From: a virus
Reading direction: 5' to 3' (one strand)
IMG/VR virus record: IMGVR_UViG_3300032516_006146
Location: 1-10,447 of that record
Length of the DNA stretch: 10,447 bases
Shown one piece after another: positions 6,782 to 10,447 of the stretch. Numbering within the stretch: position 1 is the first letter of the stretch; each line of letters starts with the position of its first letter. Made by a program: the position numbers and the translations under genes. The notes below the pieces were generated by a model that saw only the letters and a list, made by a program, of their open reading frames with translations, was not told the origin of the DNA and did no database searches.

Positions 6782-7063
6782 TTATTTGAATGATGGTGGT
6801 TCAGGAATCATTTTACCATCAAGATCTATGATTTTAGGTATTGGCAATTCTGACATTTTAATATCAGGATTGAACTGAGTACTGAAATTAAATACCGTAG
6901 TGCCTGGTTTTGGTAATCCATATTTGAAACCAGGGAGACTATAACTATCGTTTGCTAAAACCACACTATGATCACGACCTTCTGATGGTGGAACTGCTTT
7001 GAAATAAAGAAATCCCCATTCATGAATTTTGGTTTCATCGATGTCAATAACTATTCTGAACAT
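6782..7063 (-). CDS. Hypothetical protein, 93 aa
   Basis: ORF with an AAAGGAAT Shine-Dalgarno-like sequence upstream. Its stop codon is directly adjacent to the tRNA 5' end. No family recognised. Confidence 0.4.
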   Translation of the reverse strand: MFRIVIDIDETKIHEWGFLYFKAVPPSEGRDHSVVLANDSYSLPGFKYGLPKPGTTVFNFSTQFNPDIKMSELPIPKIIDLDGKMIPEPPSFK

Positions 7064-7147
7064 ATTATTCCTTTCTTTATGTTAAAGAAGTAGTAGTAAG
7101 TAACGCTACAATCAAATGTTAACAACAATCAAGAACAATCAACAAGG

Positions 7148-7257
7148 GGCTTTGTCTGTGAGCATCATTGACAACAAGTGAGTTTGTGCTCATATAAGAC
7201 AGCCACGATTTGTATCAGACTGGGTTTCGGCGGATACGTGAAACCACGATATACGCC
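7148..7257 (-). other. Structured intergenic element: two long imperfect hairpins (candidate small RNA, processing site or terminator pair)
   Basis: Hairpin A spans 7148..7204: ggct-ttgtctgtgagca ... tgctca-tataagac-agcc, with about 14 pairing positions and a 22-nt loop. Hairpin B spans 7229..7257: ggcggatacgtg-aaac-cacgatatacgcc, about 11 bp including the perfect cgtg/cacg core. Downstream on the minus strand come a TTGATTGTT x2 direct repeat and a TACTTACTACTACTTC tract, ahead of the next Shine-Dalgarno site. Confidence 0.4.
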
Positions 7258-7276
7258 TAGTTACTTACCAACTACC

Positions 7277-7570
7277 TCAAACAATTTCTGATGCAAGTTT
7301 TTCGTACTCGATGTTGATTTCAACCATCGTTTTTGAATTACTTGTTTTGATAGTCTTATCTATCCGGAAAAGAGCATTGTTGATATCAACTATTTTCTTA
7401 TCAACAACCTTGATGTCATAGGTAGGTTCGTCAACCCTTGTCTGTTCGGACCGATCGAAGTACCTTGAACGAGATGTGCCGCTATTTTTCAACTCATTGA
7501 GTTGATCACGCCGGGTTTTCAATGCTTTCTGCATTGCTAACAGTTCATTTACTGAAACTGATTCTGACAT
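7277..7570 (-). CDS. Hypothetical protein, 97 aa, probably helical/coiled-coil. It occupies the position where gp62 would be expected, immediately after gp44.
   Basis: Strong GGAGGA Shine-Dalgarno site 5 nt upstream. Starts 10 nt after the gp44 stop. No recognisable similarity to gp62. Confidence 0.45.
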   Translation of the reverse strand: MSESVSVNELLAMQKALKTRRDQLNELKNSGTSRSRYFDRSEQTRVDEPTYDIKVVDKKIVDINNALFRIDKTIKTSNSKTMVEINIEYEKLASEIV

Positions 7571-7579
7571 TATATCCTC

Positions 7580-8518
7580 CTATTTGATGTTTGATAATTC
7601 GATTAATAATGAAGTAAAATTGATTTCTTTGTCAATAGCAAATGCATGCCAGTTCATATACTGAGCAAGTAATATGTATGCCTGACCTTTTTTGCTTGGA
7701 GTATCGAGCATTGGTATATAATTATCAAACAATGCTCTATAAAGATCAGCAAAATCATATTCGTGTTCAATAATAAATTTTCTTGCCTGTGTGATGTGAT
7801 TTTCGTAGATCAACTTATATAATTCATTATCTATTGACTTGAAAGCAAAAATATCAGAGTTAATTACGTTATTGTTGATGCTACTATATTGCTCAAGAAG
7901 GACAATCATCGATCTGATGTCAGGATAATGGACATCAACAATTTTTTCCACTATAACTTGATCATATTGAACATTTTCCCTCTTAAGTATACCACCAAGC
8001 CTTTTTGCTATTTTTGGTTTCATTTCGGCTTTGCTTTTGGCATCAGTCCAACTGAAATGAAACTTTTCACACCTTGATTGTATTGGTTCTATGATTTGAC
8101 TTATGTTATTGCATGTAAAAAAGAATCGACAAAATTCAGAATATTCTTCAATTGCTGCTCTCATAGCTTTTTGAAGTGCCGGTGATGCACCATCAAATTC
8201 GTCCATGATAACAATTTTTATACCATTTTCATTAGTAACAGACATGGTAGTAGCAAATTTGTCTATTCTTGTTCTTAATGTATCTATGCCATTATCCATA
8301 GATATATTGATATATTCTGTCTCTGCTTTTAATTCCTTACAGAATGCTTTAACTACTGATGTTTTGCCTGAACCAGGTTGATGAGAATATATAAGCAGAT
8401 TTGGTATATTATTCTCTTTTACTTTCTTTGTAAAATATGCCTTAATATGAGAAGGCAATATCATACTGGATATGTCCGGTGGTCTAAACTTTTCAGGCCA
8501 TACTAAAGAATTTGCCAT
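7580..8518 (-). CDS. Clamp-loader large subunit (T4 gp44-like AAA+ ATPase, RFC family)
   Basis: EKFRP near the N-terminus (T4: EQKYRP). Walker A HQPGSGKTS (T4: SPSPGTGKT). Walker B IVIMDEFD (T4: VIVIDEFD). SRC sensor motif (IQSRCEKF). The 312-aa length compares with 319 aa in T4. Confidence 0.85.
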   Translation of the reverse strand: MANSLVWPEKFRPPDISSMILPSHIKAYFTKKVKENNIPNLLIYSHQPGSGKTSVVKAFCKELKAETEYINISMDNGIDTLRTRIDKFATTMSVTNENGIKIVIMDEFDGASPALQKAMRAAIEEYSEFCRFFFTCNNISQIIEPIQSRCEKFHFSWTDAKSKAEMKPKIAKRLGGILKRENVQYDQVIVEKIVDVHYPDIRSMIVLLEQYSSINNNVINSDIFAFKSIDNELYKLIYENHITQARKFIIEHEYDFADLYRALFDNYIPMLDTPSKKGQAYILLAQYMNWHAFAIDKEINFTSLLIELSNIK

Positions 8519-8520
8519 AA

Positions 8521-9204
8521 TTATTCCTCAATTCCGGTAGCAGTAATAATATGTTCTTTATCGTTTTGGTGGTTTGCTTCATTTTCGGCAAGTTCTGCTG
8601 CCAACGCTTGATCAGCTTGTGCGTCACGTTGGGTATTTTCTTCTGGACTACCAACAATAGCTATACTATTGTCCTGAGTATCTCCAGTGGCTTCCTCTGC
8701 AGCAGAAGATATATTTTTGGCATCTTCTTGAGCAAAAAATTGATCTGCTGATTGGGCAAAATTTTCAAGTTTGGTAGCAGCATCGTCCTTAAGTTTATTA
8801 ATTAAATTAGGATCTTGGCGTTTGACCTCAGCAAGTTTTTTATGCATATAACTACGCATTTTCCTGCGTCTTTCATGATTTATTTTTAAACTTGATTGTG
8901 CTATAACATTATCATGAGCATGTTGCTGTGGTGATCTTTTTCTATATAAACAATGACATGGTACAGGAGCACCGGTAGCAAGATCCTTACCAATATATCC
9001 CCTACCATAACATTTATTACATCCCTTACTTGGATCACTAATTTCCATATTGTGTTTTTTTGCCAAAGCCTTAATAATATCCATGGGAGTTACGTCTTCC
9101 GGTTTTACTACCTCGCCCTTATGTACGTCAACAAGGACTTCTTTAGATTCCGGTAGATCGTATACTTCCTCAAATATCTTCTTCTTTGGTTGTTCTTCAG
9201 TCAT
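8521..9204 (-). CDS. Hypothetical protein with a Zn-ribbon-like motif (CNKCYGRG...PCHC), a basic central helical region and an acidic C-terminal tail
   Basis: Tightly coupled to gp44 (TAA-TT-ATG). AAGGA Shine-Dalgarno site. Sits between the gp45 and gp44 homologs, which are adjacent in T4 itself. No family recognised. Confidence 0.45.
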   Translation of the reverse strand: MTEEQPKKKIFEEVYDLPESKEVLVDVHKGEVVKPEDVTPMDIIKALAKKHNMEISDPSKGCNKCYGRGYIGKDLATGAPVPCHCLYRKRSPQQHAHDNVIAQSSLKINHERRRKMRSYMHKKLAEVKRQDPNLINKLKDDAATKLENFAQSADQFFAQEDAKNISSAAEEATGDTQDNSIAIVGSPEENTQRDAQADQALAAELAENEANHQNDKEHIITATGIEE

Positions 9205-9212
9205 TTTTATCC

Positions 9213-9692
9213 TTAATTTCTGTTATCGATTTCTGTTTCTTTTTCTTCCAATTCAATAGCAGTATTTCTTAATATCATTTCTAACTGATCTGATATATTA
9301 AATCTTTTCTTGTTAATGGTTATACTTTTTGTAATGTTTCCATCATTATGTCGTTTTGTGGCTGCAAGCCAATCACACATCATTTCAACAATATCAAATA
9401 AATCCATACAACTTATTTGGTTTTCTGTCGGTACATTAAAAAATTCTGGATGATGTCGGTTATGATCATAATGATGAACTAATGCTGGTTTCATATCGGT
9501 AAGGAATTGTTGATATTCAGGACTGCCGTAAGTACATCCTTTTAATAAAGGAGTAAATTTTTCAAATACAGAAGCTTCAGGCTCTTTAAGTTTAGATGCA
9601 TCATGTTCATGTGCTCTATGAAGTAATTCAGTTGAAAAAATTTGCAAGTATTTTGCTACTCGCATTATGTGTTTTCTTGTTTCAGCTTCCAT
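9213..9692 (-). CDS. Putative HD-domain metal-dependent phosphohydrolase, 159 aa
   Basis: H...HD motif: KHIMRVAKYLQIFSTELLHRAHEHDASKLKEPE, giving the His...His-Asp...Glu pattern of YfbR-like HD hydrolases. Additional His cluster HHYDHNRHHPE and a downstream Asp/Glu-containing segment (DLFDIVEMMCD). Confidence 0.45.
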   Translation of the reverse strand: MEAETRKHIMRVAKYLQIFSTELLHRAHEHDASKLKEPEASVFEKFTPLLKGCTYGSPEYQQFLTDMKPALVHHYDHNRHHPEFFNVPTENQISCMDLFDIVEMMCDWLAATKRHNDGNITKSITINKKRFNISDQLEMILRNTAIELEEKETEIDNRN

Positions 9693-9714
9693 ATTATTCC
9701 AATTAAAAAATTAA

Positions 9715-9802
9715 GGTGTTGGCCGGTGGGGTTTCAAGCCGCGGCCGCGGATCCCATCCTCCGTACACACTGCTATGCAGCGTTTCTTTTCTTACCAACA
9801 CC
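9715..9802 (-). other. GC-rich 88-bp palindromic structured element bounded by 8-bp inverted repeats, between gp45 and the HD protein, followed by a U-tract on the transcribed strand
   Basis: ggtgttgg (9715..9722) and ccaacacc (9795..9802) are exact reverse complements. Inside lie the 12-bp perfect palindrome ccgcggccgcgg (SacII/NotI overlapping), an adjacent ggatcc (BamHI) site and the hairpin ctgc-tat-gcag. On the minus strand the element is followed by TTAATTTTTTAATT. Local GC is far above the surrounding DNA. Confidence 0.4.
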
Positions 9803-9878
9803 AGACTTATCATGTTATTGATCTACACCGATCTCCGACCAAGTGCGGTTGTGTGTCACGCTATATAACACGAATAAG

Positions 9879-10447
9879 TTATTCTGCTTTTTCAGTTTTC
9901 CTGATTCTTCCGCTTACGGCAAAAAATTTCATATCATCCTTTTGCCATTCAAGGAAGATAAAACCGGAATTTACCAAACTGATACGATAATCAGAAACAT
10001 CAGGCATCCTGCTTATGACTTCGGACCGGATAATAAAATCAAAGGTGTCTGTGTTTTCGGCAATTTTTTCCGGTGTGTATGTTTTCTTAAAACTATTATC
10101 ATGTGCCGAATTGAAGAGCTTTAGAGCGATCTGATTTGATGTTTTGTTGAATTTGATTTCTATGTATTCGGCTTTTACCAGATTGCTCATTTTTGATATT
10201 TCGGTAAGATCCTTCACACTAAGAATAAATGTAACATTCGGATCTTTACGGGCAATACTTGTTGGTATTTTTGGCATTGCGGCAGGATTGGTAAGAACGT
10301 AATTGATTTCGCTGTTTTGATTAGATATCACCATACTGTTTTCTGCTTGTGTAAGTGATATTGATTCAAAAGCATTTATAAACTGATGAAATTCGGAGAA
10401 ATCACGAAAATTAATATCTGTTCCTTCAAAATCAAAGAATGTTGCCG
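9879..10447 (-). CDS. Sliding clamp (T4 gp45-like), N-terminus beyond the window end
   Basis: The C-terminal region TDTFDFIIRSEVISRMPDVSDYRISLVNSGFIFLEWQKDDMKFFAVSG aligns with T4 gp45 ENTFNFIINMANMKMQPGNYKLLLWAKGKQGAAKFEGEHANYVVA (from memory). The minus-strand frame upstream of the Met at 10334 stays open to the window edge (...FDFEGTDINFRDFSEFHQFINAFESISLTQAENSMVIS...). The real start is therefore off-window. Confidence 0.7.
   Translation of the reverse strand, partial: ATFFDFEGTDINFRDFSEFHQFINAFESISLTQAENSMVISNQNSEINYVLTNPAAMPKIPTSIARKDPNVTFILSVKDLTEISKMSNLVKAEYIEIKFNKTSNQIALKLFNSAHDNSFKKTYTPEKIAENTDTFDFIIRSEVISRMPDVSDYRISLVNSGFIFLEWQKDDMKFFAVSGRIRKTEKAE

Follow-up and report, generated by a model that had tools for sequence, protein, structure and literature searches.

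A structured RNA directly downstream of a small protein gene in large uncultivated phages

A 10,447-nucleotide (nt) stretch of viral DNA (IMG/VR record IMGVR_UViG_3300032516_006146, positions 1 to 10,447; hereafter the window) was analysed. It lies within a 12.6-kb metagenome contig of a distant T4-like phage, whose clamp loader is 36% identical to that of the best GenBank phage. Its G+C content is 34.9%, and the minus strand carries every gene. It was found that a 213-bp spacer after the gene of a 97-amino-acid (aa) protein codes for an RNA domain of about 188 nt that folds on its own and, on the gene strand, directly continues the mRNA of this small protein at its 3′ end. In at least 13 lineages, the RNA comes after a homologue of the 97-aa gene and has the same orientation. 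The gene and the RNA are a two-part module inherited together amid changing surroundings, and in large uncultivated phages the module is often found among early or replication genes or within tRNA islands.

Fold and covariation of the RNA

In a first-pass annotation of the window, the spacer had been described as non-coding, with two long hairpins followed by a direct repeat and a 'TACTTACTACTACTTC tract'. The spacer is indeed non-coding: its gene strand has no open reading frame (ORF) between the 97-aa and 93-aa ORFs, and the sole ORF of at least 30 aa that touches it, a GTG ORF of 37 aa, runs on the other strand (7178-7291). Both hairpins are present at the positions given (P2 and the P4/P4b/P5 arm in Table 1), and the repeat is real, as three copies of ACAATCAA on the plus strand, which read TTGATTGT on the gene strand. 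The tract is also present, but not as a loose motif; it is the 3′ strand of a closing helix, P1, and pairs with 7260-7276 (inverted repeat I2). Thus, the two hairpins belong to one fold. The whole spacer folds better than its shuffles on the minus strand (z = -3.0).

Five diverged homologues of the 97-aa protein were found in a first search and 241 with a profile. The contigs of homologues were fetched (loci are given L numbers below), and then the DNA after the stop codon of the gene was compared. In L004/L005, L007 and L008, this DNA aligns with the window spacer in MAFFT. A covariance model, R1, was made from five sequences and rebuilt from eight as R2; nhmmer was too insensitive for the most diverged RNA copies. 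The two models score the window at 7086-7278 with 188-194 bits. R1 gave full-length matches directly after the gene in L058-L067 (59.6 bits), L049 and L048, and R2 added L046, L072, L074, L076, L078 and L080. In summary, 13 lineages (L004 and L005 being one) have a match with a covariance-model E value below 0.01 within about 25 nt of the stop codon, and the proteins of these lineages are 33-80% identical to that of the window. Four further lineages have weak or visual matches only: L045, L070 and L047 have weak model matches at the right position, and the closing helix and G/U-rich tracts are visible in L070 and L075. The family proposed here is described by what these loci have, a P1-P6 fold with covariation, at most 25 nt after the stop codon of a 97-aa homologue and on the same strand.

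The window RNA folds into two nested three-way junctions closed by P1, a helix of 16-17 bp. The most conserved bases lie outside the helices and are the ACUAGG and CAAAG junctions and two or three copies of a G/U-rich motif; ACUAGG (7255-7260) is identical in the five closest sequences. The G/U-rich motifs (UUGUUGUU) recur throughout the family at unpaired or wobble positions. The one in the P5 loop is retained in the window, L004, L008, L048, L049, L058 and L078, and is recognisable in L045, L046 and L070. The highest sequence conservation in the element is found at 7118-7147 (CAAAGCCCCUUGUUGAUUGU), and the conserved motif UUGUUGAUUGUUGUU is located around P6. This helix is wobble-rich and is maintained mainly by one-sided changes among G-U, A-U and G-C, with a rare double change in three of its six pairs; P6 is the least certain helix.

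Pairing is retained in the relatives by compensatory changes, and this check, which had been proposed together with the hairpins, was strongly positive. In an ordinary MAFFT alignment of five sequences, RNAalifold gives compensatory changes in 20 of 55 pairs. For example, the GGUAGU.../...ACUACU of P1 in the window is replaced with GGCAAA.../...UUUUGC in L004, GGCGAA.../...UUUGCC in L007 and GGUGAA.../...UUUACC in L008, and the GUC/GAC of P4b becomes GGU/ACC in L004, L005 and L007. Among 16 model-aligned sequences, double-sided changes occur in 53 of 57 pairs, including 16/16 in P1 (95% of cells paired), 12/12 in P2, 9/9 in P3 (95.7% paired) and 8/8 in P5. Standard pairs fill 90.5% of the cells versus 37-44% when the 3′ partners are slid by 1-3 columns, and 0 of 500 column shuffles reached the observed pairing values; since this alignment was fitted to the covariance model, which favours pairing, these values are somewhat inflated. 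Because the MAFFT and RNAalifold result (20 of 55 pairs) is independent of the model, the aligned sequences show that the covariation signal is not a product of the fitting. G-U and U-G cells number 108, and A-C and C-A cells number 8. Thus, the folding strand is the gene (minus) strand. The indels in the element are not multiples of three, and it has no conserved ORF.

Table 1. Features of the RNA element and of its surroundings in the window
Feature	Position	Strand	Remark
Whole structured RNA, ~188 nt	7089-7276	-	first to last base of P1; RNAalifold consensus
P1 5′ strand GGUAGUUGGUAAGUAAC	7260-7276	-	directly after the UGA stop of the 97-aa gene; inverted repeat I2
J1/2 junction, UA bases	7258-7259	-	inside conserved ACUAGG
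P2 hairpin, GUUU loop 7241-7244	7229-7257	-	~11-bp hairpin of the first-pass annotation
Junction GAAACC	7223-7228	-	precedes the P3 5′ strand
P3 5′ strand CAGUCUGAU	7214-7222	-	covariation
P4 (GGCU/AGCC), P4b (GUC/GAC), P5 (UAUGAGCA/UGCUCACA) arm	7148-7204	-	~14-bp interrupted hairpin of the first-pass annotation
P5 apical loop, G/U-rich CUUGUUGUCAAUGA	7165-7186	-	conserved motif; family consensus YUUGUUGUURAURA
Junction CCUU, P6 hairpin (7128-7143), G/U-rich tail UGUUGUUAAC	7118-7147	-	holds the TTGATTGT direct repeats
P3 3′ strand AUUUGAUUG	7109-7117	-	RNAalifold, covariation
P1 3′ strand GUUACUUACUACUACU	7089-7104	-	the 'TACTTACTACTACTTC tract' of the first-pass annotation; RNAalifold, covariation, inverted repeat I2
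Linker after P1 UCUUUAACAUAAAGAAAGGAAUAAU	7064-7088	-	outside the model match; not in the conserved fold; ribosome-binding site of the 93-aa ORF
Clamp-loader large subunit, gp44-like	7580-8518	-	first gene listed in the transcription direction
Sigma-70-like promoter candidate TTGACA-18 nt-CATTAT	7606-7635	-	consensus scan, 10/12 matches
97-aa ORF	7277-7570	-	directly upstream of the structured RNA
Spacer, 213 bp	7064-7276	-	between the 97-aa ORF and the 93-aa ORF
93-aa ORF	6782-7063	-	downstream of the 213-bp spacer
tRNA-Met (CAT), single	6708-6780	-	~300 nt downstream of the RNA element; the 93-aa ORF intervenes
Second spacer, 214 bp	6494-6707	-	ahead of the MVP-like gene
815-aa ORF with major-vault-protein (MVP) domains	4046-6493	-	Pfam MVP_shoulder, Vault_3
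Glycosyltransferase gene	between the MVP-like ORF and the small clamp-loader subunit gene	-	gene order in the window
HNH/DUF723-type homing-endonuclease-like gene	2253-3212	-	gene order in the window
Small clamp-loader subunit, gp62-like	1474-1896	-	last gene listed in the transcription direction

Is the RNA a member of a catalogued family? The RNA and its partner gene are absent from Rfam 15, Pfam, PHROGs and GenBank phages. At the gathering score, an Rfam scan, another check proposed in the first-pass annotation, gave no family for the element in the window or in 16 related loci. With E <= 10, only two chance-level matches were found in 6400-7400, which overlap the 3′ edge of the element and lie mostly over the 93-aa ORF (SSRC38 at 6980-7099, 17.2 bits against a cut-off of 80; rli26 at 6937-7088, 15.8 bits against 100). 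The copy in L045 has no Rfam match at E <= 10, and no hammerhead or other small ribozyme core was matched in the element. In GenBank phages, megablast and blastn searches with the region matched only the tRNA, and tblastn with two proteins of the family found nothing. In IMG/VR, an exact scan for the RNA motif gave 0 matches, and a clamp-loader search gave one distant locus, L001 (36% identity), without an RNA copy. A metagenome scan for the motif CAAAGMCCMTTGTTRATTRT gave 34 matches, of which one is real (the L004 contig again) and the others are the motif alone; a protein-profile scan of genome contigs found no relative. No other copy of the RNA was found in about 300 kb of fetched loci, save two marginal matches in L049 (6528-6599, E about 0.5) and L048 (9259-9308, E about 0.9-9). 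A catalogue of about 10,000 candidate viral structured RNAs (PMC10690425) may list the element as an unnamed candidate.

In the RNA copy of L045 (5296-5530), about 90 nt with a T-loop-like GGUUCGAUUCC are inserted into the P5 arm. Neither ARAGORN nor Rfam calls this insertion a tRNA.

The gene partner and its surroundings

The constant neighbour of the RNA was overlooked in the first-pass annotation; it is the upstream gene encoding a protein of about 95 aa, the sole constant partner of the RNA. P1 starts 0-6 nt past its stop codon in several lineages. The downstream ORFs are unrelated across the window, L004, L007, L058, L076, L078 and L080, the next gene being the 93-aa ORF in the window, a 90-aa zinc-ribbon-like ORF in L004, a 77-aa ORF in L007 and RNase T in L078. 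The upstream genes likewise differ among the loci. These unrelated neighbours argue for a unit of gene and RNA and against a leader of the downstream gene.

A close comparison is offered by L008 (840-982, against 6708-7088 of the window), which lacks both the 93-aa ORF and the tRNA-Met. In L008, the sequence past CUCUUUAA runs into a different region from the window, and the RNA is followed directly by a homologue of the second spacer of the window (around 6540-6690). By this alignment, the 93-aa ORF and the tRNA-Met are a cassette of about 390 bp inserted in, or lost from, this position in the window lineage. The absence of the cassette in L008 therefore excludes a gene-splitting intron and a leader or riboswitch that belongs to the downstream gene. 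A riboswitch or 5′ leader, for the 93-aa ORF in the window, would have suited a multi-junction fold with conserved junction nucleotides that ends 25 nt before the next start codon. However, the element abuts another region in L008, the distance to the next start codon varies from about 6 to more than 200 nt, and an alternative terminator/antiterminator pairing was not found. This explanation is highly improbable and is largely refuted by the variable downstream genes.

The small protein family has no Pfam match above the curated cut-off and no significant PHROG match (best E values 0.002-0.2). The protein is predicted to consist of a helix, a beta-hairpin and a helix (AlphaFold2 (AF2) model, predicted local distance difference test score 71). 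Foldseek with the AF2 model and a PDB sequence search gave only sub-threshold coiled-coil matches. The promoter candidate in Table 1, a consensus match only, sits within the 3′ end of the clamp-loader gene, about 35 nt before the start codon of the 97-aa gene, and possibly starts the transcript of the gene and the RNA; comparable TTGACA-17-TATATT sites precede the gene in L045 and L076. At the other end, about half of the lineages have a U-rich tract after P1 (e.g., UUUUUU in L004, U8 in L046 and AUUUUU in L049), whereas several, such as L045, L070 and L075, have none.

A long-range pairing between the RNA and the ORF was considered and rejected. The codons of a conserved Ile-Asn-Asn in the ORF are almost always AUC AAC AA, although other Ile and Asn columns are mixed; at window 7377-7384, across about 15 loci, Ile is ATC in 15/16 and Asn is AAC in 12/15. 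These codons yield AUCAACAA, the exact complement of UUGUUGAU in the RNA. The duplex energies were not significant against codon-shuffled ORFs, and the sites were inconsistent.

What about the tRNA cluster that the first-pass annotation had placed next to the spacer? The window holds a single tRNA-Met, beyond the 93-aa ORF. Counting the window, the module is in or near tRNA arrays in six lineages: the 10 kb around the L045 module contain 10 tRNAs; in L046 there are 22, together with an RNase P RNA; a single tRNA lies just upstream in L047; and two tRNAs lie about 4 kb off in L048 and six about 1 kb off in L080. About 11 lineages have no tRNA in the fetched flanks, which reach up to 3-6 kb per side, with several contigs much shorter. 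The association may be an enrichment and is not a rule.

It may be supposed that the RNA is in the first place a structured RNA of tRNA islands, in the class of GOLLD, ROOL and T4 rnaC/rnaD, that it has a part in tRNA or translation biology, in which it perhaps self-assembles or serves as a scaffold, and that its linkage to the gene is secondary. The position of the module in or within a few kb of tRNAs in the six lineages and the T-loop-like GGUUCGAUUCC in the L045 insertion fit such an RNA. GOLLD and ROOL, which are phage RNAs as well, are described as 'often near tRNA islands', with a Met-tRNA upstream of one GOLLD (PMC12286853). However, the lineages without a tRNA in their flanks do not fit, no Rfam model matches (GOLLD and ROOL included), T4 rnaC/rnaD are unmatched, the window RNA is 3-4 times smaller, and palindromic kissing loops were not noticed in it. 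Thus weighed, this explanation is unlikely.

Other RNAs were observed around the module in some relatives. A bacterial class A RNase P RNA of about 300 nt (L046 3239-3538, plus strand; 179.6 bits, E 5e-56) lies in the 22-tRNA array, and the module follows about 1.8 kb downstream of it on this viral contig of 176 kb from IMG/VR; the literature was searched for RNase P RNAs encoded by phages, which gave nothing specific. A type-P5 twister ribozyme (L048 8116-8170, plus strand; 51.6 bits against a gathering score of 37.6) is found on a viral contig of 219 kb, about 2.6 kb past the module, and is soon followed by two tRNAs. The tRNA at L045 1492-1567 has the amber-reading anticodon CUA, a possible sign of stop-codon recoding. 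Downstream of the family gene, L047 (666-1745) and L051 (778-1606) have about 0.8-1.1 kb without an ORF, and the standard RNA was not clearly detected in these two lineages; in L047, ACUAGG and a closing helix are present, and the model has a further weak match at 1450-1575.

In T4, the counterparts of the gp44-like and gp62-like clamp-loader genes stand side by side. In the window, the two are split by about 5.7 kb of accessory genes, comprising the 97-aa gene with the RNA, the 93-aa ORF, the tRNA, the MVP-like gene, the glycosyltransferase gene, the HNH/DUF723 endonuclease gene and small ORFs. In L008 (2-349), a 55%-identical homologue of the C-terminal half of the window HNH/DUF723 protein is encoded directly upstream of the 97-aa-family gene, which may hint at a mobile-gene hot spot. 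The first-pass annotation had called the spacer unusually long for a gene-free stretch, but its length alone is not unique, since a second spacer of the same size lies just downstream. The latter has a TTGACA promoter-like box and hairpins (fold z = -2.2), and its stretch TTGACAGAAA...GGTTGTGTGACTGAAT.AC.GGATCACACGAC is kept in L008; thus, it is probably a promoter plus a structured 5′ untranslated region (UTR). The 93-aa protein has no Pfam match, no PHROG match and no relative in the IMG/VR search. The 815-aa ORF matches MVP_shoulder (E 9.7e-22), Vault_3 (6.7e-10) and, weakly, SPFH/Band_7 in Pfam and, by these domain matches, is an MVP-like gene carried by a T4-like phage. The first report of viral MVPs, a preprint of 2023, concerned gut phages (10.1101/2023.11.10.566534).

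Possible roles of the RNA

When one scaffold bears several similar motifs, this usually points to a platform that binds a multimeric protein, or to an antisense surface with several sites for C/A-rich targets. The conserved, repeated and unpaired motifs of the element therefore favour a non-coding RNA domain that is co-transcribed with the small gene, acts together with the co-inherited protein or in the pathway of this protein, and uses the G/U-rich UUGUUGUU copies as binding surfaces. I would give this reading a probability of roughly 40%. A single short transcript would cover the gene and the RNA; in some lineages, it would start at a sigma-70-like promoter of its own and end at the U-rich tract after P1. 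P1 would bring the 5′ and 3′ ends of the RNA together. The folded 3′ domain might then have a non-coding function, be it after its release by processing or within a dual-function transcript of which it is the RNA half. The working surface would consist of the two or three exposed G/U-rich copies, which are located in the P5 loop and around P6 and may bind a multimeric protein partner (the adjacent protein being the first candidate) or pair with C/A-rich targets.

Several points weigh against this reading. The protein family is near-neutral (median isoelectric point 6.6), and fold and sequence searches gave no recognisable RNA-binding fold, which weakens the idea that the protein binds RNA. The element need not occur as a discrete stable RNA species. 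Terminating ribosomes must open P1 where it lies 0-6 nt past the stop codon, a position that suits a cis role no less well. P1 of L070 is followed directly, without a U tract, by the ribosome-binding site of the next gene; thus, the element can be internal to a polycistronic mRNA. In L009 (526-655) and L050 (3289-3435), whose proteins are 55-60% identical to that of the window, the gene is present, but the spacer is shorter (about 105-145 nt) and has a different, mostly single long hairpin without the G/U-rich motifs. This structure could have arisen from the standard one by reduction or have taken its place.

The main rival is that the RNA is a cis-acting 3′-UTR element of the small gene, which protects a short early mRNA from 3′-to-5′ decay, ends or insulates the unit, or couples translation termination to folding. 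The constant linkage to the upstream gene is what a 3′-UTR element predicts: in every case, the element lies no farther than about 25 nt from the stop codon and shares the strand of the gene. The U-rich tract after P1 in about half of the lineages and a protein unlike an RNA binder agree with it as well. A stabiliser or terminator, however, needs one hairpin, not some 57 conserved pairs in six helices, and the conserved loops and junctions (ACUAGG, CAAAG and UUGUUGUU) would be left unexplained. Moreover, the U tract is missing in several lineages, and a terminator scan of the window spacer (7064-7276) was empty. The first-pass view that simple termination is not the obvious role is supported. 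A cis-acting 3′-UTR element is thus a real possibility, although I hold it to be probably not the answer.

Another explanation, which was raised in the first-pass annotation, is a pure processing module, at which RNase III or RNase E cuts a polycistronic transcript as in T7 and T4 early mRNAs. The intercistronic position, the 16-17-bp helix and the U/G/A-rich single-stranded segments are in line with this. RNase III substrates are typically of about 20 bp, and P1 is below this length. A conserved interior of 150 nt with two junctions and loops is not needed for cleavage sites, and the downstream cistron is not conserved; L008 has no ORF after the element before the contig end. A pure processing module is thus quite improbable.

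To return to an RNA that works with its co-inherited protein, a wider proposal may be made, which is doubtful at this stage. The protein of about 95 aa and the RNA of about 190 nt might be the two halves of a new phage ribonucleoprotein (RNP) or of a dual-function early transcript, a portable module in a broad clade of large uncultivated phages, preferentially in tRNA/RNA islands. During takeover, the UUGUUGUU loops might capture a factor of the host or the phage, such as a defence sensor or the machinery of translation, tRNA or RNA decay. Should the RNA and the small protein indeed cooperate, they would represent a new class of phage RNP or dual-function transcript.

Large phages carry RNA islands, which consist of tRNA arrays and, in the relatives described here, an RNase P RNA and a twister ribozyme. 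Members of such islands other than tRNAs (T4 rnaC/rnaD, GOLLD and ROOL) have had no assigned function for decades. Unlike these RNAs, the element has a fixed protein-gene partner as an experimental handle. Its fold is compact and very well supported, and its size suits structure probing, crystallography and cryo-EM. The 'spacers' of uncultivated T4-like genomes can hide conserved RNA genes that are missed by annotation pipelines and by Rfam.

Comparison with known systems

Some candidates were considered and rejected. A group I intron does not agree with an upstream ORF that ends at its own stop codon in all lineages and with unrelated downstream ORFs, and Intron_gpI has no match at E <= 10. 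A type III toxin-antitoxin (ToxI-like) RNA has a tandem array of near-identical repeats, each of about 34-36 nt, upstream of an endoribonuclease toxin gene, whereas only motif repeats of 8-10 nt are found here; moreover, the window RNA is downstream of its gene, and the protein has no significant Pfam or PHROG match. A vault RNA was considered for the MVP-like gene 600 nt downstream, but no MVP-like gene is near any other copy. An RNase P identity has no Rfam match, and L046 has a true RNase P RNA besides. As for an intrinsic terminator, none was found in 7064-7276, where P1 encloses about 155 nt and is followed by UCUUUAAC; the relatives with a U run after P1 may have a terminator-like side role.

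The first-pass annotation had likened the spacer to T4 rnaC and rnaD (species 1 and species 2). These two phage RNAs are non-coding, measure 119-139 nt and are encoded on the gene strand, within the tRNA region of a T4-type genome. Since the element is inside real tRNA arrays in several relatives, the positional analogy has some basis. The analogy does not extend to homology: R1 gives nothing above about 1.5 bits at rnaC (2909-3047) or rnaD (3054-3172), and with filters off it finds only a weak match (10 bits), in a coding region, in T4 68000-75000. In contrast to T4 rnaC, which ends in a tRNA-like T arm (CCGGGUUCGAAUCCCGG), the window RNA has no such arm; GGUUCGAAUCC is absent from the element, where ARAGORN and the Rfam tRNA model give no match. 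Furthermore, rnaC and rnaD are not paired with a homologue of the 95-aa gene, and T4 Trna.2, Trna.3 and Trna.4 are unmatched by the profile of the 95-aa family.

GOLLD and ROOL are likewise phage or prophage structured RNAs that are backed by covariation and have no assigned function, and they have tRNA-like material in a variable region, to which the L045 insertion may be compared. They differ in their size (about 580-800 nt, or 3-4 times larger), in forming RNA-only nanocages and in having no obligatory protein-gene partner. Their Rfam models have no match in the window or in the 16 related loci.

In dual-function RNAs and 3′-UTR-derived small RNAs, such as RNAIII/hld of S. aureus, SgrS/SgrT and CpxQ, one transcript has a small ORF and a structured regulatory domain, and short motifs are repeated in loops or linkers as an interaction surface. 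In GcvB, a G/U-rich stretch pairs with C/A-rich mRNA sites. These RNAs have no homology to the element and are simple chains of hairpins with a terminator, in contrast to the closed double three-way junction described here.

The arrangement also resembles RNP pairs (smpB-ssrA, rsr-Y RNA, TnpB-omegaRNA and phi29 pRNA), in which a structured RNA with paired 5′ and 3′ ends lies beside a co-inherited protein gene. The omegaRNA of TnpB begins at the 3′ end of its gene. Here, the partner is a near-neutral helical hairpin of 95 aa without a known RNA-binding or catalytic domain, and the window RNA has no tRNA-like domain, Ro-binding helix or guide segment; ARAGORN and Rfam found no transfer-messenger RNA, Y RNA or pRNA in the window. 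In summary, the element belongs with the phage structured RNAs and is distinguished from them by its fixed protein-gene partner and its closed double-junction fold.

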